Origin: Candidatus Omnitrophota bacterium
Lineage (GTDB): Bacteria > Omnitrophota > Gorgyraeia > Gygaellales > Profunditerraquicolaceae
Reading direction: 5' to 3'
Assembly (NCBI GenBank): GCA_028717245.1
Contig: JAQUOD010000007.1
Coordinates: 16,988 to 80,987 of the forward strand
DNA: 64,000 nucleotides
This document shows, piece by piece, positions 678 to 59,503 of this stretch (the first letter of the stretch is position 1; the number at the start of each line of letters is the position of its first letter). Both the position numbers and the translations under genes were made by a program. The notes beneath the pieces are model-generated. The model ran no database searches, was not told where the DNA came from, and was given only the letters and a program-made list of their open reading frames with translations.

Positions 678-824
678 GCGAGTACCCCCTTTTAAAGGTT
701 AACTTTCTTAACCTTGATGTTTTTTACTTCTTGCAGGCTGATAAGAAAAGTTTTTGGCTTAACCATTGCGTTTAAAGGCACAATAATTATCGGTATCAAA
801 GAAACTGAATGCTGTTTTTTATTA

Positions 825-23768: not shown

Positions 23769-24212
23769 CTAATCGCCTATTATCTTTATTAAGACCCGCT
23801 TTTTGCGCTGGCCGTCGAATTCGCCGTAAAATATCTGTTCCCACGGGCCAAAGTCAAGCTTGCTATTGGTAATTGCCACGGTAACTTCTCTGCCCATTAT
23901 TGTTCTTTTCAGGTGGGCATCCCCGTTATCCTCACCAGAAAAGTTGTGCTTATATTTATCTTTACCGTATGGCGCGAGCTTTTCCAACCAGCTGCTGAAA
24001 TCGCTATGCAGGCCTGACTCGTCATCATTGATAAAAACAGAACTGGTTATATGCATGGCATTAACAAGGCAAAGCCCTTCCTTAACTGCGCCTTCCTTAA
24101 CTGCTTCTGCCACCTGCGGGGTTATGTTTATAAATTCCTGCCGGTTTTTTGTATTAAACCATAAATATTGAGTATGAGACTTCATTTTTCTTTCAACGCC
24201 CTGATCGCCCAA
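23769..24212 (-). CDS. YjbQ/UPF0047 family protein (secondary thiamine-phosphate synthase-like)
   Basis: [28 protein letters not shown] is the characteristic YjbQ block. Confidence 0.55.
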
Positions 24213-24466
24213 AGGACAAAACGAATAAAGGCAATAACAGGATAACCAAATATAGCTATGTTTAAGCCAAAAGACATCATCCTGATATATGGAGTATAAC
24301 CCAGGAGGGAATATTGCATATTTTGCATGACTTTGAATTTGGCTTCCTGGTGCTGGATGAGATAAACATTATTGAAATGCCTGGCTATAAAATATACAGC
24401 TAGTCCTGTGATTACGATTCCCAATAAAATTAACCCTTCTCTTGCTACGGTTTTCTTATTGTTCAT
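24182..24466 (-). CDS. Small membrane protein
   Basis: 94 aa with two predicted TM helices. Confidence 0.3.
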
Positions 24467-24526
24467 CTGATTATGCTCCTCATATTGTACAGGTTTATTG
24501 TAACGCTAAGTGAGCATTTGTCAAAC

Positions 24527-24557
24527 AAATAAGGCGCCGATTTCCGGCGCCTTATTG
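24527..24557. terminator. Intrinsic terminator hairpin
   Basis: AATAAGGCGCCG-gaaat-CGGCGCCTTATT perfect stem, followed by TTTGTTTG on the minus strand downstream of the lipoprotein gene. Confidence 0.55.
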
Positions 24558-24584
24558 TGGCTTTAAACCAATTACTTCTTATGC

Positions 24585-25004
24585 TTAAGGGTTTACAGGT
24601 GCAGGTTCTGTTGTGGGTGTTTGAGGCAATTCCGGCGCTGGCGTAGGAGTTGATGCCGGGGCTTGTTCCGAAACCGGCGCTGATTCAGGTGCTGGTGCCG
24701 GCGCTTGAGCTGGTGCGGGTTCAGAAGCTGGTGTCACAACTGAAACGCTAATACTCTGTTTTACCGCATCCAGTTCTTTCTTAACATTAGCCAATTCTTC
24801 TTTAGTGCCGGACAGTTCCTTTTCTTTAACATCCAACTGATCAGTAAGCGTCTTTATCTGGGTGTCTTTCTGCTGGATTACCTGATTCAACTGGCTGACT
24901 TCACTCTGAAGCTGCTTTACCTTTCCCGCTTCACATCCGTTAAAAAGAAGTACGGCTACTGCTAAACCTAAAACCATAAACATAATTCCCTTGCTCTTCA
25001 TCAT
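24585..25004 (-). CDS. Lipoprotein with coiled-coil region and Pro/Ala-rich C-terminus
   Basis: Signal peptide with lipobox LLFNGC, a heptad-like Q/L/K region, then PAPAQAPAP repeats. Confidence 0.45.
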   Translation of the reverse strand: MMKSKGIMFMVLGLAVAVLLFNGCEAGKVKQLQSEVSQLNQVIQQKDTQIKTLTDQLDVKEKELSGTKEELANVKKELDAVKQSISVSVVTPASEPAPAQAPAPAPESAPVSEQAPASTPTPAPELPQTPTTEPAPVNP

Positions 25005-25153
25005 TGCTCCTCCTTTATTGTAGGTTTTATTTTAGCGCTAAATAATGTTTTGTCAATGAAGTTTATAACTAGTAGGTTTTTAGTCTATTTTAGCAGAGTG
25101 TACCCTGCCTATGCCATTTGGTTTCTGGCGGAATTTCCGGATAAACGAAGCTC

Positions 25154-27136
25154 TTATTTTCTGAAAGGGGCCAATAACAGCGAGGTATTGGACTTTCTGA
25201 TTACAGCGTGCGCTACGCCTCCAATGAATACTTCTTCAATCCAACCTCGTCCCTGCGTACCCATAATAACCAAATTATAATCCTTACTGTTAATTTCATT
25301 GATAATCAATTGCTTAGTGTGGCCCGTTTCAAGTTTTGTAATTACATTTTTTGCCCCCGCGTTCAACAAAGATTCTTTTAACGTATTTAGCCTCCCGGTA
25401 TCTATGCGATTAAATTCCTCTAATTTGTGGCTAAGATGCGGGAATAAAATGTTTTTGTCCTGGATATGGTATAGGGTAACTATAGGATTGTAGTTACTAA
25501 CAACGTTTCCTAGAGTAGCAAAGGCGGCTTTTGCGTTTTCTGAAAAATCCGTAGGGAAAAGTATATTCCCGGAGAATACGAGAGGGCAAACCGTATGTTT
25601 TTCTCCTTTACATTTAATAAGGAGGGCGGGTACGGTAAGGTTCCTTATGATGCTGTCCGAAACGCTACCCAAGAGCATTTCTTTGCCTAAACTTTTACTA
25701 TGCGAACCCAAGACTAATAATTGATAATTTTCTTCGGCGATAAGGCGGTTTATTTCCATAAAAGGGATACCATACAAAAACTCATAAGATGCATCTATCC
25801 CTGTGACTTTTAACCTTTCAACCTGTTCTTCAATAACCGGCTTATGCGCTTTTTCAATCACATCCTCAATGCCCCCGGCAGTTTCTACAGAGATAACGTG
25901 CACTAATTTCGCTGTTTTCGTAAAATCTTTCCCTTCCTTTGCAACGCACTCCACAACTTCGTTAGAGGCTTCGGATAAATCAGTAGCAATAAGTGTTTTT
26001 TTCCAAAGGAGTTTTCTTCCTTTTATCATTGTCACCTCCGGGTGTATTCTTTCTCCTGCGGCGAACCAAAGACGGGTCCTATTGGAAAATTTGACCAAGC
26101 TAAGCATTATGGGCACCTCTGTTAAAACCCCTACTACAGTAGCCAAGGCCGCACCGCTCTTTAAACCGAAAAGAGAAATAGCAACTGCTACTGCCAGCTC
26201 AAAAAAGTTGCTTGCGCCAATAAGCGCTGCCGGAGAAGCAATTGAATGCTCCACTCGCCACTTCCTTGCCCAGAAATAACCGACGGCAAAAATAAAATAT
26301 GTCTGGATAGTAAGAGGAATGGCGATTAAAAAAATGTGTAACGGGTTTTCGATTATAATCTTGCCCTGAAACGCAAAGAGCAAGATCAAAGTCAAAAGGA
26401 GCCCTAAAATCGTGACTGGTTTTAATATCTTCAAGAATACATTTTCGAACCAGGCAACACCTTTATGCTTTATAAGCTGCTGCCTGGAAATATAACCACT
26501 CGCTAAAGGCACGACAACAAAAAGAATGGTAGAATATATTAGGGTATCATAAGGCACCGTTATTTGGTTTACCCCCAGCAGAAATTTAACGATAGGGACA
26601 AAAGCTATTAAAATTACAAGGTCATTAACAGCAACTTGAACCAGCGTATGGGCAGGGTTTCCTTTAGTCAAATAACTCCAGACAAAAACCATTGCCGTAC
26701 AGGGAGCGGCGCCCAAGAGGATTGCCCCGGCTATATATTCCTTAGCCAATACAGGATTTATAAATGCGGAAAATAAATATTTCAAAAAGACCACGGCAAA
26801 TACAGCCATGGTAAATGGTTTTATAATCCAATTAACCACCAAAGTTATTGCCAATCCTTTTGGTTTTTTACCGACTTTGACAATACTTGAAAAATCAATC
26901 TGCACCATCATAGGATAGATCATTAACCAGATAAGAATAGCAACCGGTATGTTAACTTTAGCTACCTCAATCCGATTCAAAAAATCTACTGCTTGCGGAA
27001 ATACTTTACCGAAAAGAATACCGCAAATAATACACAAAATTACCCATATAGAAAGATAACGTTCAAAAATAGGCAACTTTACACTAACGCTATTTGCCGA
27101 CATAAGGACCTCCTTAAATTCCCAAAGCCCCTGCAA
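25154..27136 (-). CDS. acr3: Arsenite efflux permease ACR3 fused to two universal stress protein (UspA) domains
   Basis: N-terminal ~350 aa is polytopic with ACR3/BART-superfamily features. The C-terminal ~300 aa has two Usp-like repeats (LVLGSHS...GSVS and LVIMGTQGRG...GGVAHAV). Confidence 0.7.
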   Translation of the reverse strand: MQGLWEFKEVLMSANSVSVKLPIFERYLSIWVILCIICGILFGKVFPQAVDFLNRIEVAKVNIPVAILIWLMIYPMMVQIDFSSIVKVGKKPKGLAITLVVNWIIKPFTMAVFAVVFLKYLFSAFINPVLAKEYIAGAILLGAAPCTAMVFVWSYLTKGNPAHTLVQVAVNDLVILIAFVPIVKFLLGVNQITVPYDTLIYSTILFVVVPLASGYISRQQLIKHKGVAWFENVFLKILKPVTILGLLLTLILLFAFQGKIIIENPLHIFLIAIPLTIQTYFIFAVGYFWARKWRVEHSIASPAALIGASNFFELAVAVAISLFGLKSGAALATVVGVLTEVPIMLSLVKFSNRTRLWFAAGERIHPEVTMIKGRKLLWKKTLIATDLSEASNEVVECVAKEGKDFTKTAKLVHVISVETAGGIEDVIEKAHKPVIEEQVERLKVTGIDASYEFLYGIPFMEINRLIAEENYQLLVLGSHSKSLGKEMLLGSVSDSIIRNLTVPALLIKCKGEKHTVCPLVFSGNILFPTDFSENAKAAFATLGNVVSNYNPIVTLYHIQDKNILFPHLSHKLEEFNRIDTGRLNTLKESLLNAGAKNVITKLETGHTKQLIINEINSKDYNLVIMGTQGRGWIEEVFIGGVAHAVIRKSNTSLLLAPFRK

Positions 27137-27920
27137 TCTCGTTCATAATTTTTCTGTTTTCAGAGAATTCCTGCTCGTGCGACAATGGTATACAATTATC
27201 TAGTTTCTGTTCCCCTTGAAGGAGTCTCACCGCAAATGCAAGGCAGGTTGCTTCACCGCAGGCCTTACAATTGGTTTTGGGAAGCCAGCCGTATATCTGC
27301 AGAGCGGTTACTTTAACTTTCTCTTCATAATTAGGTTTTATCTTATCCTTATCCCGGAAGGTTTTATTTACCAATTCTTTAATTTCATTTAAGATATTCC
27401 AAGTATCAATAATGTCGTCTGCCTTGGCAATCGCTACCTTAATATTATAAAGATTAATCATCCTGCGGCCTTTAGTATAGGTCAATACAGGAAGATTCTT
27501 GTTGTAAGAAGCGCCTTTTATTATTGCATTAAGATAGGGTAAGATTTCTGAGATATCATAGTAAAAATAAGCAATGAGGCGAATTTTTGTTTCATCTGCA
27601 ATACAAGGAGCAACATAACAAAGGGTAATCGATTTTAAGAACTCTTCTTCTACGGCAGAGGGTTTATAGCCTTGCGCTTTCCTAAAAAAATCTTCTTCAT
27701 AATCACGGTACAAAAATTTATAATAACCGCTAATAATAACACCTTCATCTATTAGAAGGCGGCAGACTTCTTGGCGCCTTCCCTCCGGGACAACAACTGC
27801 TAAAGTAGATATGTGTTTAAAGCCTACTTGTCTTGTAACCAAAATCTGTTGAGCCTTTAGCCCTACGTCTTGATTAGGTAAAACTATTATTTCGTAATTT
27901 TTATCTCTATCTATTTCCAA
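27114..27920 (-). CDS. Uncharacterised protein with C-terminal RnfB/AcsC-type putative Fe-S domain
   Basis: C-terminal LPKTNCKACGEATCLAFAVRLLQGEQKLDNCIP matches the Cx2Cx4C...C 'FeS' domain found at the N-terminus of RnfB and the corrinoid Fe-S protein. The N-terminal 220 aa is not recognised. Confidence 0.4.
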   Translation of the reverse strand: MEIDRDKNYEIIVLPNQDVGLKAQQILVTRQVGFKHISTLAVVVPEGRRQEVCRLLIDEGVIISGYYKFLYRDYEEDFFRKAQGYKPSAVEEEFLKSITLCYVAPCIADETKIRLIAYFYYDISEILPYLNAIIKGASYNKNLPVLTYTKGRRMINLYNIKVAIAKADDIIDTWNILNEIKELVNKTFRDKDKIKPNYEEKVKVTALQIYGWLPKTNCKACGEATCLAFAVRLLQGEQKLDNCIPLSHEQEFSENRKIMNEIAGALGI

Positions 27921-27929
27921 TTTTAATCC

Positions 27930-28619
27930 CTAAAATATCTTTAGCAAATATACCCTTGCATAATACAGGCCAACAAGTATAAATACGATACCGGTGATCT
28001 TTCGCATGTAATATTCCAGCTTTGTCATTCGGTTAAACCAAGGCTTAAGTGATGTTACCCCAAGCGTAATCACAAAGGCAAATAACAAAACCGGTAAACC
28101 CGTTCCAAGGCCGTAAATAAACGGAAGCGTTGTTCCTAATTGAGATTTAAGCGCAAGCGGTATGAGGCTGCCGAAAAAGAGGGCCGTAGAGATTGGACAA
28201 AAAACCAGGGCAAAAATCAGGCCTAAAGCAAATGCCCCACCCGCTCCTGCTTGGGCAAGCCTATTTTGATGTTTTTCAGAAAGCGAGAAACTGGGGATAT
28301 TGAATTTGATCATGTCTAATAAAAACAACCCTGTAAAAATCAGAATCGGGCCGAATGCCTTATTCATGTATTTCTGCAAGAAATTTGCCATCACCGGTAC
28401 GCTAAGAATAGAACTTATAGTGACAAAACCTAACGTAGCATACGAGAGCATCCTGCCAATTGTATAAGAGAACCCCGATATTAATACTGCTTTGGGATGA
28501 ATGATTTTCTTAGATAGGAAAGAAATAGCAGCGATATTTGTAGCAAGAGGGCAAGGGCTGATAGAAGTTAATATGCCCAGCCAAAGCGCTGATATTAACC
28601 CGACAAATATACTGTCCAT
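27930..28619 (-). CDS. CcdA/DsbD-family transmembrane thiol-disulfide electron transporter
   Basis: Polytopic membrane protein with conserved Cys in SPCPLA and FCPIS, as in DsbD_2/CcdA. Confidence 0.65.
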   Translation of the reverse strand: MDSIFVGLISALWLGILTSISPCPLATNIAAISFLSKKIIHPKAVLISGFSYTIGRMLSYATLGFVTISSILSVPVMANFLQKYMNKAFGPILIFTGLFLLDMIKFNIPSFSLSEKHQNRLAQAGAGGAFALGLIFALVFCPISTALFFGSLIPLALKSQLGTTLPFIYGLGTGLPVLLFAFVITLGVTSLKPWFNRMTKLEYYMRKITGIVFILVGLYYARVYLLKIF

Positions 28620-29059
28620 TAAAGCTCCTTTAAAAATGCAGCTATTTCATCCCGGACATAATTGTAAAATCTCTGCTTATTACCGGCATATCCCCATATC
28701 TTTGTAAGATTCTTAAATTTTTCTTCCTTACCACCCCTTACGAGGGAAATCATCAGCGATTTGGTGTAAAGTTGATAATCGTTAACAAAATGCTCGTTGG
28801 ATTTTTCGTCAACATTAACTGTTTTAAACACTATCTTTCCGGATGTAAGCTCATCCTTGAAGTTAGCCTCTATTGCCTCCTTTGAGTATTGTTCTAATTT
28901 GTGACAAGTCGGGCAACGGAATGTACCGTGGAAATAATAGGCCATAACATAATTCTTCGGCACAAAAGTAGCGGCTTCTTCGGAAAAACATTTAAGCGTA
29001 AAGATAACGGCAAAAAAGAACAAAAAGGAAAGTATCATAAAGAGAAGCTTGCTTCGCAT
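28619..29059 (-). CDS. Membrane-anchored thioredoxin-fold protein (CxxC)
   Basis: N-terminal TM/signal anchor, then FRCPTCHKLE with a CPTC active-site-like motif. Confidence 0.5.
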   Translation of the reverse strand: MRSKLLFMILSFLFFFAVIFTLKCFSEEAATFVPKNYVMAYYFHGTFRCPTCHKLEQYSKEAIEANFKDELTSGKIVFKTVNVDEKSNEHFVNDYQLYTKSLMISLVRGGKEEKFKNLTKIWGYAGNKQRFYNYVRDEIAAFLKEL

Positions 29060-29078
29060 GTCAACTCCTTTTAACTTA

Positions 29079-29438
29079 TTACGGATTATTTTTGATTATT
29101 TCTTTTATGGCTGAAACCGCCTCTTCCGTGGTTTTATTTCTGATATCTAGTGGGATATGCTTTGTTTTATCAAAACCCACTGCCTCAAAGGCATCCCTGA
29201 ACATCTTCTGCTGCATTAAAGGGTCGCATGCCGCGACATACAGTTTATCTATATCCTTATTATCAAGTAAAATTTTAAGATATTGGTCGCCGTCATCCGC
29301 GCAAAGCTGGGGGTGCAAAGAAACAAAATCTACAATTTTCTCCCTACGGATAGCATTTAGAACTTCTATAGTATCCATTTTCTTAAACGATGGGCAGGTG
29401 CCTTGGCAGATACAAAGAATTAAACCTTTTTTAGCCAT
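29079..29438 (-). CDS. Small Cys-rich putative redox protein (distant MvhD/FlpD-like?)
   Basis: LILCICQGTCPSF and a VAACDP motif. The family assignment is uncertain. Confidence 0.3.
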   Translation of the reverse strand: MAKKGLILCICQGTCPSFKKMDTIEVLNAIRREKIVDFVSLHPQLCADDGDQYLKILLDNKDIDKLYVAACDPLMQQKMFRDAFEAVGFDKTKHIPLDIRNKTTEEAVSAIKEIIKNNP

Positions 29439-29439
29439 G

Positions 29440-29655
29440 CTATTTGCCTCCTTTTCTATCGCCGAAAAATTTTATTGCCTTCTGATCGCAGATTTTGCCG
29501 CACCCTTTACAGAATTCTACACAGTTTTCCGGATGCGAAACTTTAGACTTTCCATCAGGCCCTATTTCGAATACTCCGTGCGGGCAAAAATTATAACATT
29601 GCATACATCCGGCGCATTTAGTATAATCTATTATAGGATACCAGTTCTTAGCCAT
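29440..29655 (-). CDS. 2x[4Fe-4S] ferredoxin
   Basis: CAGCMQCYNFCP and CVEFCKGCGKIC are two Cx2Cx2Cx3CP-type motifs in 71 aa. Confidence 0.7.
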   Translation of the reverse strand: MAKNWYPIIDYTKCAGCMQCYNFCPHGVFEIGPDGKSKVSHPENCVEFCKGCGKICDQKAIKFFGDRKGGK

Positions 29656-29666
29656 TTATCGTTCCT

Positions 29667-29903
29667 TTACTTTGCCAAGATCCATTTTTTTATTTCATCC
29701 GGCGTAGGGATTCTGCCCGCAGCCTTCACCTCGCCGTCTATCGCAATCGCAGGCGTTGTCATAATACCGTAACCAATGATTTTCTGTATATCTTCCACTT
29801 TAACCACCTCTGCCTGCGCATTCAGCTCCTTTATTGCAACTTGAGCGTTTTCGTAGAGTTTCTTGCATTTTGGGCAACCCATGCCTAGAATTTCAATCTT
29901 CAC
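29667..29903 (-). CDS. Thioredoxin-family 'redox-active disulfide protein 2'
   Basis: 78 aa, MKIEILGMGCPKCKKL with CPKC in a thioredoxin-like fold. The size and motif fit the small thioredoxin-like proteins recurrently linked to ars and DUF318 permease genes. Confidence 0.7.
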   Translation of the reverse strand: MKIEILGMGCPKCKKLYENAQVAIKELNAQAEVVKVEDIQKIIGYGIMTTPAIAIDGEVKAAGRIPTPDEIKKWILAK

Positions 29904-29922
29904 CTTGCTCCTCCGTTTAACG

Positions 29923-30393
29923 TTAAAGCGCCACTACTTTACATCCTTTATCTTTAATGATCAAAACAGCGCACGAAGCTTTTCGTGCTACCTTTTCTGC
30001 TGTAGAGCCCAAGAGCGCGTGTTTTATGTCGCTTCTACCCCGGCTTGACATAACAATCAGGTCCATACATCTACTCCTAGCAAACTTCACAATCTCCACA
30101 AAAGGATGGCCTTCCTTTATCAGGCCACCGACATAAAGGTGTTTTGGGATATAGGATTTAAACTCTTCAAGCCTTTTTCTGTTTTCAACTATAAAATCTT
30201 TATGGATTTTATTGCAAATGCCTTCCAATGGAGGGTGGACTTTATGGATTTGCTCCATATGGAATAGGTCTTCTTCCACGTGAAGGAGAAAAATCTTTCC
30301 GCCACAGCATTCGGCTAACTTTACCGCTTCAGCCAATGCCTTTCTTGAAAAATGCGAAAAATCAATCGGCACTAATATCTTCTTAAACTGCAT
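29923..30393 (-). CDS. Universal stress protein (UspA family)
   Basis: 156 aa with ILVPIDFS...LIVMSSRGRS...GSTAEKV blocks. Confidence 0.7.
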   Translation of the reverse strand: MQFKKILVPIDFSHFSRKALAEAVKLAECCGGKIFLLHVEEDLFHMEQIHKVHPPLEGICNKIHKDFIVENRKRLEEFKSYIPKHLYVGGLIKEGHPFVEIVKFARSRCMDLIVMSSRGRSDIKHALLGSTAEKVARKASCAVLIIKDKGCKVVAL

Positions 30394-30406
30394 TTGGCTC
30401 CTCCTT

Positions 30407-31201
30407 TTATTTTTTTACAGCCGAAACTTTTATGCTTACTACCACATCTTGAGCGGCCTTAAGATTATCAAACATGGCATCCACCGGATAGCTCGATTCG
30501 TTAATCACCTCAACATCCCGAAAACCTGCCATTGTTATTAGATTTAAATATTTATCCTTCTTGATCGCTCCGGCAAGACAGCCTACATACGCCTCAACTG
30601 AATCCTTAATCTCTTTAGGCAGATCTTTAGCAAGCGCCAAATCTGAAACCATCAGTCTTCCTCCAGGCCTTAAAACCCTAAAGGCTTCCTTAAAGACACT
30701 TTGTTTATCCAGAGATAAATTAATCACGCAGTTGGAAATAATCACATCGATAGAATTATCCTCGACTGGCAATTTTTCAATCTCGCCAAGCCTGAATTCA
30801 ACGTTTTTATAGTTGCCTTTCCTGGCATTTGCGTTAGCCTTTTCTATCATTTCAGGGGTCATATCAACGCCAATAACTTTGCCTGTATTTCCGACGCGAG
30901 ACGAGGCAAGAAAAACATCAAACCCGGCACCGCTACCTAAGTCAAGCACAACATCGCCTTCTTGAAGCGAGATGACAGCCACCGGATTGCCGCAACCTAA
31001 TCCGAGATTAGCGCCTTCGGGGACAATATTTATTTCTTCATCGCTATAACCTACGCTTTTACTTATAACCTTGGACGAACCGGTATTTCCACAGCAAGAG
31101 CTGTTTGGACAACACGAAACACCTTGTGTCGCAACTTTAGCGTATCCTTCTTTTACAATTTTTTTTATCTCATTCGATTTGTTTTTCATAGACCGCCTCA
31201 A
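30407..31201 (-). CDS. arsM: Arsenite S-adenosylmethionine methyltransferase
   Basis: VLDLGSGAGFD SAM motif I plus the N-terminal Cys pair (CCPNSSCCG) and later Cys residues typical of ArsM. It sits in an ars context. Confidence 0.75.
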   Translation of the reverse strand: MRRSMKNKSNEIKKIVKEGYAKVATQGVSCCPNSSCCGNTGSSKVISKSVGYSDEEINIVPEGANLGLGCGNPVAVISLQEGDVVLDLGSGAGFDVFLASSRVGNTGKVIGVDMTPEMIEKANANARKGNYKNVEFRLGEIEKLPVEDNSIDVIISNCVINLSLDKQSVFKEAFRVLRPGGRLMVSDLALAKDLPKEIKDSVEAYVGCLAGAIKKDKYLNLITMAGFRDVEVINESSYPVDAMFDNLKAAQDVVVSIKVSAVKK

Positions 31202-31204
31202 TAG

Positions 31205-32377
31205 TTATTTAACGATAAAACCAAAAACCATTCCGGTTATTGTAGCCATAATCACCACTAAACTTACATAAACAGCCGTCTTTTTTATACCCATTATGCT
31301 GCGAAGAACAAGCATACTCGGTAGGCTTAAGGTCGGGCCTGCTAAAAGTAGCGCTAAGGCCGGCCCCTTGCCCATACCCGCATTCATCAAACCCTGCAGT
31401 ATTGGCACCTCAGTAAGCGTAGCAAAATACATGAATGCTGCGACGATTGACGAGAAAAAATTTGCCCAAAGAGAATTACCACCTACGAGCGCCATTACAT
31501 AACGTGAGGGAATGACACCTTCGTGACCTACCCGCCCAAGCAGAAAACCGGAAATAAGCACTCCGCCTAATAATAAAGGAAGGATTTGTAAAGCAAAACC
31601 CCACGTCGCTCCAGTCCACTCTTTTAATTCTTCTTTTTTGAACCATTTAATAAACATAACGGCTAAGCTCACAAGCGAAAAACCGGCAATCCACCATTTG
31701 TACTGGTAAATTAATGACCATATCCCATTATTACCCTCAAGAGGCTTCCCCCAGTTAGCAAATACGAGGAACGTAACCATCGAAGCAAAATAAAGAACCG
31801 TTTTACCTAAAGAACGAGCCTCTTTTATTTCACCTGTATTAAAATCGCCGTTTGCATGGCGCGCTCTTTCTTCTTTTAAGAATATCAGGTGCATTAATAA
31901 ACCAATAATTACACTAAATGCCACCGCGCCTATTGCCCTAGCTAATCCAAGCTGCCATCCGAGGATACGCGCAGTCAAGATAATCGCGAGAACGTTTATA
32001 GCCGGTCCGGAATAAAGGAATGCAATAGCAGAACCAAGCCCGGCTCCTCTTTTATAAATACCGGCAAAAAGCGGCAGGACCGTGCAAGAACATACTGCTA
32101 AGATTGTTCCTGAAACAGAAGCAACGCTATAGGAGAGGAATTTATTTGCTTTTGTGCCGAAGTACTTCAAGACAGACGCCTGACTGACAAATACTGAAAT
32201 GGCCCCTGCGATAAAAAATGCCGGAATAAGACAAAGAAGCACGTGTTCTCTGGCATACCATTTCACCAATGCCAATGCTTCAAATATCGCATTACTAAAA
32301 CGCACGTTCTCTATGGGCAGGTAAAAACATGCCAGAAATATAGCGGTAATATATAAGAATTTCTTCCATTCTTTCAT
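31205..32377 (-). CDS. arsP: DUF318/ArsP-like permease (putative organoarsenical efflux permease)
   Basis: Polytopic membrane protein of 390 aa with a CSC motif in a TM segment (ILAVCSCTVLP). Adjacent to arsM and to the redox-active disulfide protein. Confidence 0.55.
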   Translation of the reverse strand: MKEWKKFLYITAIFLACFYLPIENVRFSNAIFEALALVKWYAREHVLLCLIPAFFIAGAISVFVSQASVLKYFGTKANKFLSYSVASVSGTILAVCSCTVLPLFAGIYKRGAGLGSAIAFLYSGPAINVLAIILTARILGWQLGLARAIGAVAFSVIIGLLMHLIFLKEERARHANGDFNTGEIKEARSLGKTVLYFASMVTFLVFANWGKPLEGNNGIWSLIYQYKWWIAGFSLVSLAVMFIKWFKKEELKEWTGATWGFALQILPLLLGGVLISGFLLGRVGHEGVIPSRYVMALVGGNSLWANFFSSIVAAFMYFATLTEVPILQGLMNAGMGKGPALALLLAGPTLSLPSMLVLRSIMGIKKTAVYVSLVVIMATITGMVFGFIVK

Positions 32378-32679
32378 TTTTTTCTCCTACCTACAACTTT
32401 GCAACAACCGCCTTCGATACGAATGGCCTTAATATTAACCAGGCCATCGGCGATTTTCCTGTGAGCTGATGTTATAATACGCGAGAATGTCGGGCGCGAG
32501 ATCTTCATCTTCTTCGCAGCATCAATTTGTTTTAAGCCCTCTAAGCACCCAAGCCTTATCGCTTCAAATTCATCAAGGGTTAAATATACGCCCTCTAATT
32601 TATTTAAAGGCCTGCAACGCGGCTTAAAACACCGCTCGCCAGGCATACACTTTATCCATCTCGTCTTTTTAGGCCGCAA
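32374..32679 (-). CDS. DUF134/UPF0251 family predicted DNA-binding protein (putative operon regulator); TTG start
   Basis: LTLDEFEAIRLGCLEGLKQIDAAKKMKISRPTFSRIITSAHRKIADGL has the sigma-70 region 4-like HTH typical of DUF134. AAAGGAG RBS is present. It is the first gene of the operon and overlaps arsP by 4 nt. Confidence 0.6.
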   Translation of the reverse strand: MRPKKTRWIKCMPGERCFKPRCRPLNKLEGVYLTLDEFEAIRLGCLEGLKQIDAAKKMKISRPTFSRIITSAHRKIADGLVNIKAIRIEGGCCKVVGRRKK

Positions 32680-32694
32680 AATATACTCCTTTAG

Positions 32695-32714
32695 TTATGA
32701 ACACATGTTCATAA
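32695..32714. promoter_or_regulatory. Perfect 20 bp palindrome (putative operator) in the promoter region of the ars/redox operon
   Basis: TTATGAACA-CA-TGTTCATAA lies 15-35 nt upstream of the DUF134 start codon. Confidence 0.5.
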
Positions 32715-32792
32715 CAATTTTACCATAATAAGCTATTTTGTCAATAAAGAATTATTGGAATTAAATTTGTAATGCGGGTTTTAAATAGAGGG

Positions 32793-33740
32793 CTAGAAAG
32801 GATCCTGGCCTTTTTTGTATTTCAAATAGTCCTGCAGGATTTCCTTATGGTCAAAAACGAAACTCAACTTTTCAATTTCATCTATTTTTACTACTTTTAA
32901 TGCTGCTGCGTCGTCTCCAGCCTTAGGTTTACCCTTGCCTTTTGCGATAAATACCGTGCCTATGGTGTGAAAGCGCGGGTCGCGCTCAGCCTTAGAATAA
33001 GTATGGAATTGTTTTAAACCTTCTAAATCCAAGCCGGTCTCTTCCTTTGCTTCTCTGGTTACTGCCTCTTCTAAACTCTCCCCGTAATCCACAAATCCTC
33101 CGGGGATAGCCCAGCCAAAAGGAGGATTACTCCTCTCTATGATTACTATGTCCTCGTCAATTTCAATTATGGCATCCACGGTAGTAAAGGGTCCGCTCTG
33201 TAACTTCTGGGTAATATATTCCAGATAGCTTGTCACGCCTTTATGAAAAATATCAAATGCTTCTTTATCGTAAAGACAAAATATAATTTCCTTGAGGCTG
33301 GGCCCGTCTTCCCTCAAATGCCTGAACACCTCCTGGGACATTATTTTGGCAGCCGCTAATAAAGAAAAACCCCCCACTCCGCAGCCTAAGGCCGGAAAGG
33401 CAACAGATCTTATTTTTAAATCCCTGGCTGCCCGCAGCGCGTTTTTACAGGATTCCCGGATTTTTATTTCATCGGTTTTGAAATCCATACCCATGGTGGC
33501 AGCGTGAATTACATATTTAGCGGATAAGTTACCCGCAGAAGTAAAAATTGCCTCGCCTATTTTTATCGGCCCTTTTTTTACTGCCTCATCTTCAATTGCT
33601 TTACCGCCCTTCTGTTTGATGGCGCCGGCAACACCCCCGCCCATCACCAGTTTATTATTAGCGGCATTCACTATGGCATCAACCTTTAACGCGGTAATAT
33701 CACCCTGGATAATTTTTATTTCTGTATCTTTAATAAACAT
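32793..33740 (-). CDS. Macro domain (ADP-ribose/O-acetyl-ADP-ribose processing) fused to NUDIX hydrolase
   Basis: N-terminal [32 protein letters not shown] is a macro domain. C-terminal [24 protein letters not shown] is a Nudix box. Confidence 0.8.
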
Positions 33741-38397: not shown

Positions 38398-38855
38398 CTT
38401 TTATTACCCCGTAGTTTCCTTTCCATTAATTTTATCTGGTCCAAGCGCCGCTTGTGCCTGCCTCCTGAAAATTTAGTATTTAGCCAAACATTAAGGATTC
38501 TTTTGGCTGAATCCGTCTTTACGAAAGTAGAGCCTAAAACTAAAACATTACTATCATTGTGTTCGCGGGAGAGGCGGGCGGCCTTGGCATTATAACATAA
38601 GGCAGCGCGCACTCCGGAAAGCCTGTTTGCCACAATAGAGTTACCGATGCCGGTCTTACAAATCAGGATGCCTTGTTTGTACCTTCCGTGCGAGACCTCT
38701 TCTGCCAGGCGGTAAGCAATCGGAGGATAATCGCAACGCTCTATTGAATAGGCACCTAAGTCTTTTACCTGAAAATTCTTCTTCTCAAGAAAAGACCTTA
38801 TCTTTTCTTTGAGGCGAAATCCGCCATGGTCAGAACCAATAATTATTTTCTTCAT
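38394..38855 (-). CDS. rpiB: Ribose-5-phosphate isomerase B
   Basis: [12 protein letters not shown]...ILICKTGIG matches the RpiB/LacAB blocks. Confidence 0.85.
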
Positions 38856-39913
38856 ATTAATTTACTCACCCTTTCTACGGCCTCTTTTATTATCCTTAAA
38901 GAATCGGCATAAAATTCCGGGGCCCTGCCGATAGGGTCAGCAATATCCAAGTTATTATCTTTTATTTTAGCAAATTCTTTTAATAAAAACAGTTTATTTT
39001 TTGCCTCCGGGGCCATTTCCAGGATTCTCTGTTCATGCAGCCTCTCCATAACCAGGATAAGGTCAGCCCTGGCGAGCATCTCTTTATTTACTCTTTGCGA
39101 ATGATGCGCGGATACATCCATGCCCTCCTGTTTCATCAACTCCCGGACTTCTTCTGTGGCGCCTAAACCTTCTACTGCCATTATCCCCGCGGATAAAACT
39201 TCTATATCCTGGCGGCTTTGTTCTTTAAGCTTCTTCTCAAGGAGGGCTTTGGCCATAACCGAACGGCAGGAATTTCCTGTGCAGAGAAAAAGGATAACTT
39301 TCTTCTTTAACGCTGCCTCAATCTCTGCTTTTTTTATTGCCCCCTCCCTTAATATCCGTAACTGAGCGCCGGTTAAATCTACAACTGATGACTCCAGGCC
39401 CAATCTTGTATGGCCTGCGTCAATGGCAAAATCCACCAGGCCATCTAAATCTTTTATCGCCTCCGGAAAATTTATAGGCGCGTTTCCCCCGGAGATATTT
39501 GCCGACGGACAGACTACAGGGACCCCGGATAAGGCGATTACCTTTAAGGCAACAGCGTCATCAGGCATACGTATGCCGATGGTGCCTTTATCCTTAGCTT
39601 TTAAAATCAGGGTCAATGGCCCCGGCCAAAATTTAGCCATAAGTTTATACGCCAAAGCCGGTACATCCTGGGTGAACTCTTCTATTTTTTCTTTTTTATC
39701 TATGTGCAGAGAAAAAGGCTTATCCTGCGGGCGTTTCTTTATGGCATAGAGCCTCTTTACTGCCTGCTCATCTGCCATATGCGCGGCAATACCATAGACT
39801 GTTTCAGTAGGAATAACCACTAAGCCCCCTTTTGCCAGGATAGCGGCTGCTTCCTGGAGATGATTCTCATCGGGATTAAGGGGGTCTACTTTAACTATCT
39901 TGGTAGAATTCAT
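38852..39913 (-). CDS. L-threonylcarbamoyladenylate synthase (TsaC/Sua5/YwlC) fused to low-molecular-weight protein phosphatase (YwlE-like)
   Basis: N-terminal YrdC-like region (VVIPTETVYGIAA). C-terminal LFLCTGNSCRS is a CX5R P-loop. The ywlC-ywlE-rpiB-glyA neighbourhood resembles Bacillus. Confidence 0.75.
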   Translation of the reverse strand: MNSTKIVKVDPLNPDENHLQEAAAILAKGGLVVIPTETVYGIAAHMADEQAVKRLYAIKKRPQDKPFSLHIDKKEKIEEFTQDVPALAYKLMAKFWPGPLTLILKAKDKGTIGIRMPDDAVALKVIALSGVPVVCPSANISGGNAPINFPEAIKDLDGLVDFAIDAGHTRLGLESSVVDLTGAQLRILREGAIKKAEIEAALKKKVILFLCTGNSCRSVMAKALLEKKLKEQSRQDIEVLSAGIMAVEGLGATEEVRELMKQEGMDVSAHHSQRVNKEMLARADLILVMERLHEQRILEMAPEAKNKLFLLKEFAKIKDNNLDIADPIGRAPEFYADSLRIIKEAVERVSKLI

Positions 39914-50776: not shown

Positions 50777-50816
50777 TTATATTTATTTGCGGGGAGAGGA
50801 TTTGAACCTCTGACCT
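50777..50816 (-). pseudogene. Orphan 3' half of an initiator-type tRNA-Met gene (anticodon loop through acceptor 3' strand)
   Basis: Minus strand reads CATAACCTGAAGGTCAGAGGTTCAAATCCTCTCCCCGCAA. This matches position for position the 3' half of bacterial tRNA-fMet (CAUAACCCGAAGGUCGUCGGUUCAAAUCCGGCCCCCGCAA), with compensatory changes in the T-stem. The 35 nt upstream cannot form an acceptor or D-arm. Confidence 0.55.
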
Positions 50817-50948
50817 TCAGGTTATGCTTACCACTACAGTTTTCACTGCTCCGCCACAAATCTTGGCGGATTTGTAGTCTGGACTATACCTTAATCCCAA
50901 AATTCAGGACCTCTGCCATCTAGTCTCTACACCTTCCCGTCGTAAAAC

Positions 50949-51488
50949 TTAACGGGCTTGGCTCGGTATTACCTTAGAACCTTGAGGCTCCACCGAATTT
51001 GGCAGACTATCCTTCAGTCGTCTCCGGCTGAGGAGCCCATTGAATAACAAATCCCAACGTTCCCTGTATTCAGCTGACTTTGGCTTACGCTGCCTTTTAT
51101 CCGTCTCTATCAGACTTGTAGTACTACCGTAAGCTGAAAATATAGAAATAGGCATGACGTAAAACACATGCAGGGAATCAAGATACAGGATTGCGAAATC
51201 AAAATCATCTTTATCATAACGGTCCCTCAACATATGTCGGCGATTAGTCTTAGTTCTTCTTACATCAACCCCGTAAGATTTCGTCTTACGATTAAACCAA
51301 GCGCTCTTCACTTGTATGCGGATAAGTTTGCCATTAAGGTCAAGCGCTAAATCGTAGGGAAGACGATCCCCTATAGGCTTTAGCACTTTAAAGCCCCTTC
51401 TTAGCAATTCCGTTATGACTGCTGATTCCGCAATATCTGCCTTGAGCTTTGTATCCATTGAGCCTGACGAGCTACCAGACTGCTCCAC
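50949..51488 (-). CDS. Hypothetical protein, PD-(D/E)xK nuclease-like
   Basis: ESAVITELLRRGFKVL...DRLPYDLALDLNGKLIRIQVKS resembles the YraN/Hjc-like PD-(D/E)xK pattern (E...G...D...hxhQ/ExK). Confidence 0.3.
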   Translation of the reverse strand: MEQSGSSSGSMDTKLKADIAESAVITELLRRGFKVLKPIGDRLPYDLALDLNGKLIRIQVKSAWFNRKTKSYGVDVRRTKTNRRHMLRDRYDKDDFDFAILYLDSLHVFYVMPISIFSAYGSTTSLIETDKRQRKPKSAEYRERWDLLFNGLLSRRRLKDSLPNSVEPQGSKVIPSQAR

Positions 51489-58717: not shown

Positions 58718-59503
58718 TCACCTCCTGATAATACATTTTACCGGACAGACCTCTATACACTTACCGCAGGATGTACATTTATTATAGTCTATTATTGCCA
58801 GATTGTCTATGACATGTATAGCGTCAACCGGACAAACCTGTTCGCACTTACGGCAGGCAATACAGCCTACCGGACAGACTAGCCGGGTATCTTTTCCTAA
58901 ATCATGGGAGCTGCAGGCAACATAGACATCATGTGTTACAGGCACAAGGGTGAATAATTTCTTCGGGCAGATGAGCACGCATTTATTACAGGCCTTGCAT
59001 TTATCCTTATCCACTACGGGTAAACCTGTATCAGACATCTTGATGGCGTCAAAAGGGCAAACTCTCACACAACTACCAAATCCTAAACAGCCCCAAACGC
59101 ACTCCTTCTGTCCGCCTAAAACTAAATTAGCAGCCACACAATCTTCTATGCCCGAATACAGGAACCTGTCCTTTACTTTTGTGCCGCCAGCGCAGTGTAA
59201 AACCGCAACTGCCTTTTCTATTTTTTGCAGCTTCCTGCCTAAAGCCTCGGCAATTTGCTTCTTGGTTTCATCGCTGCTGACCCGGCAGGCATCTATTTTC
59301 AGCTTACCGCTGAGCACCGATTCCGCAAAGCCAAAACAACCTGCCCCGCCGCAGGCGCCGCAGTTTGAACCCGGCAGCAAACCATGGATTTTTTCTAAAC
59401 GGGCATCCACATGGACTGCCAGCTTTTTAGAAGCGAGTGCCAAACCCACCCCAAATAAAAGGCCCAAAACACCCAAAGTTAAAATCGGTATCAGAATTTC
59501 CAT
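58718..59503 (-). CDS. rnfB: Rnf electron transport complex subunit B
   Basis: N-terminal TM, a CGACGGAGC...C 'FeS' domain, then several CxxCxxCxxxCP ferredoxin motifs. Confidence 0.85.
   Translation of the reverse strand: MEILIPILTLGVLGLLFGVGLALASKKLAVHVDARLEKIHGLLPGSNCGACGGAGCFGFAESVLSGKLKIDACRVSSDETKKQIAEALGRKLQKIEKAVAVLHCAGGTKVKDRFLYSGIEDCVAANLVLGGQKECVWGCLGFGSCVRVCPFDAIKMSDTGLPVVDKDKCKACNKCVLICPKKLFTLVPVTHDVYVACSSHDLGKDTRLVCPVGCIACRKCEQVCPVDAIHVIDNLAIIDYNKCTSCGKCIEVCPVKCIIRR

Follow-up and report, generated by a model that had tools for sequence, protein, structure and literature searches.

The minus strand of the window, by which we mean the whole 64 kb stretch of DNA analysed here, carries a run of 11 closely spaced genes that begins with a DUF134 gene and ends with a gene for an ACR3 permease fused to two universal stress protein (Usp) domains (Table 1). 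In the ORF listing, the successive intergenic gaps from DUF134 to ACR3 are -4, 3, 13, 19, 11, 1, 19, -1, 9 and -23 nt. The initial annotation had described one ars-type operon at this locus, and such tight packing behind one promoter-like site bears this out; its count of about twelve genes, however, comes down to 11. Of the operon span it gave (24182-32714), the part at 25154-32679 stands, whereas the part at 24182-25004 is detached on account of its gaps and its own promoter-like sites. The two genes there (24585-25004 and 24182-24466) are preceded by gaps of 149 and 118 nt, respectively, each has a promoter-like site of its own with 11/12 matches, and a clean hairpin lies between them at 24528-24556. 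We regard them as probably being transcription units apart from the 11-gene operon.

Table 1. Features of the 11-gene cluster and its upstream region, in the order of the minus strand
Feature	Position	Strand	Length or form	Basis
Promoter-like site	32717..32744	-	TTGACA, 16 nt, TG-extended TAAAAT (TGnTAAAAT)	11/12 matches
Candidate operator	32694..32715	-	inverted repeat GTTATGAACA-tg-TGTTCATAAC	between -10 element and DUF134 ribosome-binding site
DUF134/UPF0251 helix-turn-helix protein	32374..32679	-	101 aa	PF02001, 75 bits; weak HTH matches
ArsP_1 family permease	31205..32377	-	390 aa	PF03773, 258 bits
ArsM, arsenite S-adenosylmethionine methyltransferase	30407..31201	-	264 aa	NF008823, 351 bits (cut-off 263)
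Free Usp	29923..30393	-	156 aa	PF00582
ArsE, MTH895/ArsE-family small thioredoxin-like protein	29667..29903	-	78 aa, CPKC	TIGR00412, 108 bits (cut-off 62); Thioredoxin_3
Small dicluster-type ferredoxin	29440..29655	-	71 aa	Fer4_10, 32 bits
Stand-alone HdrA N-terminus-like domain	29079..29438	-	119 aa	weak HdrA matches; no Pfam family
ArsF-family protein	28619..29059	-	146 aa, CPTC	NF040494, 120 bits (cut-off 60); no Pfam family
ArsG-family CcdA/DsbD_2 membrane protein	27930..28619	-	229 aa	NF040495, 273 bits (cut-off 200); DsbD_2, 62.5 bits
FeS268	27114..27920	-	268 aa	N-terminal ferredoxin-like, TBP-like and AcsC/RnfB-type [4Fe-4S] domains; C-terminal PF04060
ACR3 arsenite efflux permease with two fused Usp domains	25154..27136	-	660 aa	TIGR00832, 399.5 bits (cut-off 282.8); SBF and Usp (two stretches)

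Profile HMM searches confirmed nearly all of the initial family calls, among them ArsM, the ArsP-like permease, the ACR3-Usp fusion and the free Usp. The proposed ferredoxin matches Fer4_10, the protein described as a 119-aa Cys-rich one has five conserved cysteines (C9, C11, C15, C46 and C71), PF04060 falls on the C-terminus of the 268-aa protein (FeS268) where an RnfB/AcsC-type Fe-S domain had been placed, and the CcdA/DsbD-type call for ArsG is supported by the DsbD_2 profile and by both membrane cysteines. Only in part does this hold for ArsF, taken at first for a membrane-anchored CPTC thioredoxin-fold protein: its signal or anchor sequence and CPTC motif are there, but the searches lend no support to the fold, since none of the thioredoxin families matches ArsF significantly by sequence. 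In the ArsP_1 permease, which scores under the cut-offs for SO_0444 and SaoE, the membrane CSC motif (C96, C98) is invariant; the Cys columns of ArsM are conserved for the most part.

The order DUF134, ArsP_1, ArsM or a CDF protein, ArsE, the optional ferredoxin and 119-aa protein, ArsF, ArsG, FeS268 and ACR3 recurs in three loci (L005, L006 and L007), and the same DUF134-to-ACR3 order is found in about 15 more Omnitrophota-type loci. Neighbourhood comparison finds the whole cluster, redox and ars genes together, conserved in many Omnitrophota contigs, and the cluster is common in Omnitrophota from groundwater, lake and sediment. The free Usp gene is also present in L007, L014 and L026, and the ACR3-Usp-Usp fusion in L007. 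In L006 and L007 a CDF cation exporter takes the place of ArsM; the ArsP_1 family, for its part, takes in Cu/Zn exporters too. Given these two observations, some of the genes in the cluster may be directed at metals besides arsenic.

A candidate regulator and its putative operator

The operon shares ACR3, ArsM and an ArsP_1-type permease with canonical arsR-acr3/arsB-arsC operons that include arsM and arsP, but it departs from them in its two Usp domains fused to ACR3 and in its regulatory gene. As first reported, ArsR, ArsC and ArsD are absent, and this holds across the whole 64 kb window: four ArsR queries returned no match, no ArsC candidate was found (the sole LMW-phosphatase domain belongs to a Sua5/YrdC fusion at 38852-39913), and for ArsD there is only a sub-threshold match of ArsE (E = 0.0056). 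With the ArsR queries negative in the window, DUF134, initially named as the only candidate regulator, is the best candidate. Among 121 orthologues, each of six cysteines (C11, C17, C22, C45, C92 and C93) is retained in 98% or more, and judged from the sequence of DUF134 we consider it a candidate both for the repressor and for the sensor of the operon.

The palindrome upstream of DUF134 is real, although what was described as a perfect 20 bp palindrome is not a continuous 20-mer but has the form 10 + 2 + 10. Of 13 orthologous loci, 11 have it at this same position ahead of DUF134, and orthologous loci share the -35 and -10 elements as well. A single copy of the core motif is present in the window (0.01 expected), and 11 of the 12 motif matches in 1.17 Mb of fetched loci lie just upstream of DUF134. 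Two loci (L019 and L024) carry a symmetric variant, TAATGCATA..TATGCATAA, together with an altered recognition helix (IHQSTISRI vs ISRPTFSRI); this co-variation of helix and operator comes from a single variant clade, made up of two loci, and from one paralogue. The palindrome could instead be a 5' RNA hairpin (-11.5 kcal/mol, z = -3.1), and the symmetric changes are compatible with both readings. As a DNA operator, it would be bound by a DUF134 dimer that represses the operon, and DUF134 would be released from it by a redox signal or by As(III), which reacts with thiols, so that DUF134 would stand in for the missing ArsR. On present sequence comparisons, this Cys-rich candidate regulator with a conserved putative DNA operator looks new.

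The ArsE/ArsF/ArsG trio and a predicted thiol relay

Each member of the trio retains the cysteines expected of a disulfide pathway. ArsE has an invariant CxxC and lacks a hydrophobic segment in 48 sequences, and is predicted to be cytoplasmic. ArsG has about six segments, with the SPCP cysteine (C23) conserved in all sequences and the FCP cysteine (C141) in 89%. The CxxC of ArsF is likewise invariant; full-length homologues begin with a signal or anchor sequence, from which ArsF is predicted to be exported and its CxxC domain should be extracytoplasmic. The thiol relay first suggested fits this anatomy. In thioredoxin -> CcdA -> ResA/CcsX/TlpA pathways of cytochrome c maturation, a small cytoplasmic donor passes through a six-helix CcdA/DsbD_2 protein with a cysteine per half to an exported or anchored CxxC acceptor. 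ArsE, ArsG and ArsF supply the same donor, CcdA/DsbD_2 and acceptor parts, but cytochrome c maturation genes are absent nearby and the context is arsenic resistance.

The further suggestion that these redox genes lie outside known ars operons and might be undescribed did not survive, because the trio scores above the NCBIfam cut-offs for ArsG, ArsF and ArsE. [quoted passage not shown] With the curated family scores, the names in GenBank and these two papers, the gene set is in part a standard annotated ars variant. The ArsEFG of Shewanella putrefaciens 200 (Environ Sci Technol 53:6182) comprises the same three families, likewise inside an ars operon, and both modules have a CxxC, CxxC and two-membrane-Cys chemistry in common. 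In the Omnitrophota module, by contrast, ferredoxin and HdrA-N-terminal-like genes split arsE from arsF-arsG, the TBP-like/[4Fe-4S] gene follows, and DUF134 rather than an ArsR gene is present; the organism that carries it belongs to an anaerobic candidate phylum, and there is no adjoining ArsC, whereas Castillo and Saier found arsC in 7/8 cases (PMC2963123).

We interpret the 11-gene cluster, with moderate confidence, as an arsenic and organoarsenical resistance operon, in an uncultured Omnitrophota bacterium, with one promoter; this is the best explanation of the whole, DUF134 repression and thiol relay included. Transcription would start from the single promoter at 32744-32717. We envision that ACR3 would export As(III), that ArsM would methylate As(III) and the ArsP_1 permease export the trivalent methylated products, and that ArsE -> ArsG -> ArsF would carry cytoplasmic reducing equivalents across the membrane to its outer face.

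The literature ties ArsEFG to resistance against nitro-aromatic arsenicals, and in an unlikely alternative ArsE and ArsF would act as reductases on the nitro group of trivalent roxarsone or nitarsone, and the amino-aromatic arsenicals so formed would leave the cell through ArsG, with no transmembrane thiol relay. The NCBIfam names point this way (ArsF, nitrophenyl compound nitroreductase subunit; ArsG, aromatic aminobenzylarsenical efflux permease; both, and ArsE, above cut-offs), GenBank (PGAP) gives the exact window proteins the same ArsF- and ArsG-family names, and PMC9144182 places ArsG with efflux transporters and ArsE and ArsF with organoarsenical resistance proteins. Nitroreduction is harder to reconcile with the signal peptide or anchor of ArsF homologues and with the retention of both CcdA-type membrane cysteines in ArsG. 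In Geobacter, moreover, a classical thioredoxin (PF00085) with a signal peptide stands in the ArsF position, and exposure of groundwater, lake and sediment Omnitrophota to synthetic feed additives seems unlikely.

Iron-sulfur companions of the trio

Under the resistance-operon reading, the ferredoxin, the HdrA-N-terminal-like protein and FeS268 would be low-potential redox partners, and the ferredoxin may, as first suggested, supply the relay. The top NCBIfam match of the ferredoxin is HgcB-like, under cut-off, and the 119-aa protein aligns with HdrA residues 7-89 of 9sfi (E = 4.9e-4). This gene pair, an apparently new lead, recurs in L007, L008 and L009, and in Thermotoga and Geobacter its neighbour is an ArsR-family gene.

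FeS268 has a conserved C106 in its TBP-like domain and [4Fe-4S] cysteines at C218, C221, C226 and C243. Its C-terminal 50-60 residues share 41-45% identity, at 1.3-2.5 A rmsd, with the N-terminal [4Fe-4S] domain of the large subunit of the corrinoid iron-sulfur protein (AcsC/CdhE) and with that of RnfB, and all four cysteines are invariant; unlike those proteins, FeS268 has no TIM-barrel, corrinoid domain or Rnf context, and its [4Fe-4S] domain is fused to TBP-like and ferredoxin-like domains. An ars-type gene lies within 10 kb in 61 of 80 loci of the family, drawn from many phyla, and within 500 nt in 49 of the 80; in 59 of the 61 the two share a strand.

This family also bears on a rival reading, in which the cluster would be an island for thiol, metal and envelope redox stress in general, its arsenic genes being interchangeable passengers, and DUF134 would sense redox or Fe-S status in place of arsenic. 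L006 and L007, which replace ArsM by CDF, add OsmC, SufBC-like, DGC and Lgt genes, rhodanese genes flank the Geobacter relative, and the Cu/Zn efflux proteins within ArsP_1 and the Usp domains in the cluster would suit such an island. We nevertheless hold it to be quite improbable: ACR3 stands at the cluster end in 18/25 Omnitrophota-type loci, ArsM recurs in several, and across phyla, genes for ACR3, ArsR and LMW phosphatases (ArsC-type) accompany the FeS268 family.

That FeS268 acts in place of DUF134 as arsenic- or redox-responsive acr3 regulator, the DUF134 palindrome being only an autoregulatory site or RNA hairpin, is very unlikely, given that a helix-turn-helix domain was not found in FeS268, the region upstream of the FeS268-ACR3 pair has no conserved palindrome, the gene is mostly mid or late in operons, 37/80 family loci have an ArsR homologue, a JGI label is not traceable to any paper, and the TBP-like fold occurs in non-regulator proteins too. 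As an alternative to a redox role within the resistance operon, FeS268 may be a sensor or partner of ACR3. In L001 it stands alone with ACR3, so that it has no need of ArsE, ArsF or ArsG; this widespread arsenic-linked family looks new.

Layout and limits of the arsenic operon

The operon comprises eleven minus-strand genes between 32679 and 25154, separated by gaps of -4, 3, 13, 19, 11, 1, 19, -1, 9 and -23 nt (Table). Most products of the region, those of DUF134 and the 268-aa gene among them, match GenBank proteins from a Candidatus Omnitrophota metagenome-assembled genome at 100% identity. Profile searches identify in them the same families that the initial annotation had called from motifs, so those calls were correct. 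A promoter scan of 10 kb returned three 11/12 sites, all of them intergenic: one precedes the DUF134 gene, and the other two precede the genes for a 139-aa lipoprotein and a 94-aa membrane protein, which come after gaps of 149 and 118 nt. Between these two genes lies a perfect 12-bp hairpin with a T run. Because the lipoprotein and membrane protein genes have their own promoters, wider gaps and this terminator-like hairpin, they are ruled out as members, and the predicted operon extends from 32744 to 25154. The interval 24182-32714, originally proposed to be one operon, therefore stands for 32744-25154, whereas its lower 970 bases form separate units. No obvious terminator follows the ACR3 gene, so read-through past it is possible.

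Features of the operon, of the rest of the window and of the related loci discussed here (L numbers denote loci fetched from other genomes or contigs; scores are in bits, against the model cut-off)
Feature	Locus	Coordinates	Strand	Basis
Gene 1, DUF134/UPF0251	window	32374-32679	-	profile search
Gene 2, ArsP_1 permease	window		-	profile search
Gene 3, ArsM	window		-	NF008823, 351 vs 263
Gene 4, Usp	window		-	profile search
Gene 5, Thioredoxin_3, MTH895/ArsE family	window		-	TIGR00412, 108.3 vs 62
Gene 6, small ferredoxin	window	29440-29655	-	profile search
Gene 7, 119-aa Cys-rich protein	window	29079-29438	-	profile search
Gene 8, 146-aa ArsF-family protein	window		-	NF040494, 120 vs 60
Gene 9, DsbD_2 protein, ArsG family	window		-	NF040495, 273.3 vs 200
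Gene 10, 268-aa protein, C-terminal PF04060 FeS domain	window	27114-27920	-	profile search, 53
Gene 11, ACR3 fused to two Usp domains	window		-	TIGR00832, 399.5 vs 282.8
Candidate operator	window	32715-32694		inverted repeat
Promoter-like site before DUF134 gene	window	32744-32717		promoter scan
Promoter-like site before 139-aa gene	window	25056-25029		promoter scan
Promoter-like site before 94-aa gene	window	24524-24497		promoter scan
Hairpin and T run	window	24528-24556		
Two small envelope genes (139 and 94 aa)	window	24182-25004	-	
Macro domain-NUDIX hydrolase fusion	window	32793-33740	-	
Sua5/YrdC-LMW-phosphatase fusion	window	38852-39913	-	
RnfB-like protein	window	58718-59503	-	PF04060 and several Fer4
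Group I intron	window	50854-51058	-	Rfam RF00028, 58.4 vs 50 (gathering score)
tRNA-like T-arm and acceptor end	window	~50780-50830	-	
Thermotoga ferredoxin cluster	L008	7523-8351		
Geobacter ars cluster	L009	6619-10627		
Second DUF134 paralogue	L030	~12359 onward		
26-bp palindrome (Aminicenantes MAG)	L069	~739-764		
54-aa ORF	L006	8464-8628		
54-aa ORF	L007	2564-2728		

Each of the two small envelope genes has a near-consensus promoter. The lipoprotein is coiled-coil and Pro/Ala-rich; the 94-aa membrane protein has no family, and its ORF shares 31 nt with a YjbQ/UPF0047 ORF. On the other side, a 315-aa Macro domain-NUDIX hydrolase fusion is encoded directly upstream of the operon promoter.

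Among the arsenic genes, ACR3, the arsenite efflux pump of canonical ars operons, is present above its cut-off. The Cys columns 30/31, 36/37, 70, 158 and 208 of ArsM are kept in 74-89% of 21 homologues. The ArsP_1 permease, a candidate ArsP, matches PF03773 with 258 bits and carries a membrane CSC motif without variation in 46 homologues; the SO_0444 and SaoE equivalog models give it sub-cut-off scores. The absence of ArsR and ArsC noted from the first inspection holds across the 64 kb window. A phmmer search of the window with four ArsR sequences from related loci found no ArsR/SmtB-family repressor at E <= 0.01, and no arsenate reductase ArsC is encoded in the operon. The sole LMW-phosphatase domain in the window is ruled out as ArsC, being fused to Sua5/YrdC among housekeeping genes. 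This fusion gene has RpiB-like and AIR carboxylase genes on either side and no ars context.

The ArsE, ArsF and ArsG trio

The central redox genes of this operon were initially taken for a new module. Their NCBIfam scores and GenBank names instead identify them as a published and automatically annotated trio: ArsE, ArsF and ArsG all exceed their NCBIfam cut-offs, the ArsG model being an equivalog, and PGAP names these exact sequences ArsF family and ArsG family in GenBank. The trio was named ArsEFG by Chen, Zhang and Rosen 2019, as cited in PMC9144182, where ArsG is grouped with efflux transporters, and ArsE and ArsF with organoarsenical resistance proteins. The observation itself stands and its interpretation survives in part, the exception being the claim of an undescribed redox module; what is central to the finding has been described before, and the system is not an undescribed one. 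What remains as real leads is the operator system of DUF134 together with an ars-linked TBP-like/[4Fe-4S] family.

The anatomy of the three proteins nevertheless still reads as that of a putative thiol relay. ArsE has no hydrophobic segments, and its CxxC is invariant in 48 homologues. ArsG matches PF13386 (62.5 bits vs 24.9) and PF02683 (38.1 bits vs 27.1), and about six hydrophobic segments show in its hydropathy scan, as expected for a DsbD-type transmembrane domain; each half holds one Pro-adjacent Cys, with C23 (SPCP) present in 27/27 sequences and C141 (FCP) in 24/27. ArsF has a single N-terminal hydrophobic segment and a CxxC that is invariant in 24 homologues, and the N-termini of its full-length homologues resemble typical signal peptides or a lipobox. 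In the Geobacter relative, the place of ArsF between the Thioredoxin_3 and DsbD_2 genes is taken by a PF00085 thioredoxin that has a signal peptide. As for the fold of ArsF, sequence comparison with the PDB gave only noise, hhalign found no significant similarity to E. coli TrxA or to the periplasmic thioredoxin of Geobacter (probability <=1%), all matches to Thioredoxin_2, Thioredoxin_4 and OST3 were sub-threshold, and a single-sequence structure model was unusable (pLDDT 46).

For trivalent roxarsone and nitarsone, reduction of the nitro group is reportedly the task of ArsEF, and ArsG is said to export the product; the NCBIfam names are one basis of this account. The curated names "nitroreductase subunit" and "efflux permease" fit poorly with an ArsF that is predicted to be exported and an ArsG that keeps its CcdA cysteines intact, and settling this conflict would correct an annotation that is now spreading to many genomes.

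The DUF134 protein and its candidate operator

The first gene product is a member of DUF134 (PF02001, 75.4 bits vs 27) that misses the NCBIfam equivalog PRK04217 (56.9 bits vs 115), and six of its cysteines are kept in at least 98% of 121 orthologues. Upstream of the gene lies a candidate 22-bp operator site, GTTATGAACATGTGTTCATAAC, whose palindrome core TTATGAACA-NN-TGTTCATAA is found a single time in the window, against 0.01 occurrences expected. With up to 3 mismatches, the core occurs 12 times in 1.17 Mb of fetched loci, and 11 of these copies stand ahead of a DUF134 orthologue, in the stretch from its -10 element to its ribosome-binding site. Two loci, L019 and L024, have a symmetric variant, TAATGCATA-NN-TATGCATAA, at the same position; exactly these two encode the predicted recognition helix IHQSTISRI in place of ISRPTFSRI. 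Taken together, the recurrence of the operator, its co-variation with the helix, the six cysteines and the lack of ArsR in the window support, but do not prove, a reading of the Cys-rich DUF134 protein as a putative repressor in place of ArsR. It is also possible that the operator sequence has a role as an RNA hairpin.

To our knowledge, DUF134/UPF0251 is a large family without an assigned function, and a literature search found nothing tying either it or PF04060 to arsenic. The candidate operator and the co-varying helix of the putative repressor offer a practical way of assigning the family its first function, possibly as a new metalloid or redox sensor.

Palindromes were also seen at two further loci. 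L030 holds a second DUF134 paralogue, of a more typical kind, that comes with a palindrome of its own, TTATTAGCATATGCCAATAA, and a different recognition helix, ISRQTFGSI. In an Aminicenantes MAG (L069), the gene for a distant homologue of the 268-aa protein is preceded, at about 250 nt, by a 26-bp palindrome with the same core as the DUF134 operator, GATATATGAACATATATTCATATATC; ArsR-like and LMW-phosphatase genes adjoin it, and the 3.2 kb contig showed no DUF134 gene. Neither the DUF134 operator nor any other palindrome was found upstream of the isolated pairs of 268-aa and ACR3 genes in L001 and L013.

Iron-sulfur proteins and the wider cluster

The 119-aa protein aligns, cysteines included, to the N-terminal Fe-S domain of HdrA, covering HdrA residues 7-89 only. 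Unlike HdrA, it lacks the full-length FAD and Fe-S form of about 650 aa, and its scores with the NCBIfam HdrA models, 24-27 bits, fall short of the cut-offs of 1100-1400. Among Omnitrophota, Thermotogae, Geobacter and Margulisbacteria its identity is 66-95%. In Thermotoga, an ArsR-family gene is followed by the ferredoxin and the 119-aa homologue; the Geobacter order is ArsR, ArsP_1, the 119-aa homologue, ferredoxin, an unnamed gene, Thioredoxin_3, thioredoxin, DsbD_2 and rhodanese. Distant phyla thus share a conserved pair, the ferredoxin and the HdrA-N-terminal-like gene, beside an ArsR-family gene. The 66-72% identity of the Thermotoga and Geobacter small proteins to the window copy suggests either horizontal spread or very strong constraint.

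The 268-aa protein shares with the large subunit of the corrinoid iron-sulfur protein and with RnfB the FeS domain only; it has no corrinoid or polyferredoxin body, and the rest consists of TBP-like and ferredoxin-like domains. The sole other PF04060 protein in the window is RnfB-like. Its conserved core, some 175 residues long (query 94-265), retrieves 333 clusters (50% identity) at E <= 1e-10; the family spans many anaerobic phyla and occurs in Omnitrophota, Planctomycetota, Bacillota, Chloroflexota, Acidobacteriota, Desulfobacterota and others, with C218, C221, C226 and C243 invariant and C106 nearly so. An ACR3, ArsP_1, ArsE, ArsG, ArsF or ArsM homologue lies within 10 kb in 61 of the 80 genome loci, on the same strand in 59 of those 61, and the nearest ars-type gene is at most 500 nt away in 49/80; ArsR homologues occur in 37 of the 80 and LMW-phosphatase (ArsC-type) genes in 20. 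The gene is also found in minimal settings, as a lone pair with ACR3 (L001) or beside ArsR alone (L003). The protein could serve as redox partner, sensor or chaperone, and its ars-linked family is a candidate for a component still missing from anaerobic arsenic metabolism. Our literature search turned up no paper with the JGI label "ArsR family metal-binding transcriptional regulator".

The same cluster order recurs in L005, L006, L007 and many Omnitrophota-type genome loci: DUF134 and ArsP_1, then ArsM and/or a CDF exporter; next ArsE, followed by optional Usp, DGC, ferredoxin and 119-aa genes; and finally ArsF, ArsG, the 268-aa gene and ACR3. Since the neighbours differ among L005, L006 and L007 and the operon GC (0.385-0.42 in window 26001-32000) is lower than that of the flanks (0.44-0.47), the cluster behaves like an island, consistent with one that moves or rearranges. 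We consider improbable the broadest reading, in which DUF134/UPF0251 proteins of this type would form a new Cys-based, metalloid-responsive repressor family replacing ArsR in Omnitrophota, and in which the ferredoxin, HdrA-N-terminal-like and TBP-like/[4Fe-4S] proteins would together reduce ArsE with electrons from ferredoxin, independently of NAD(P)H, and so power a relay from ArsE through ArsG to ArsF, for arsenic handling on the outer face of the membrane in strict anaerobes without ArsC.

A 54-aa ORF without an assigned family is conserved after the CDF cation-efflux gene in L006 and L007, with homologues in 8 of the 80 loci. Elsewhere in the window, ARAGORN calls no tRNA near the group I intron, trial splicing included, and no 5' acceptor strand matching the tRNA-like end, AGAGGTTCAAATCCTCTCCCCGCA, was found nearby; the intron lies just 5' of this end.
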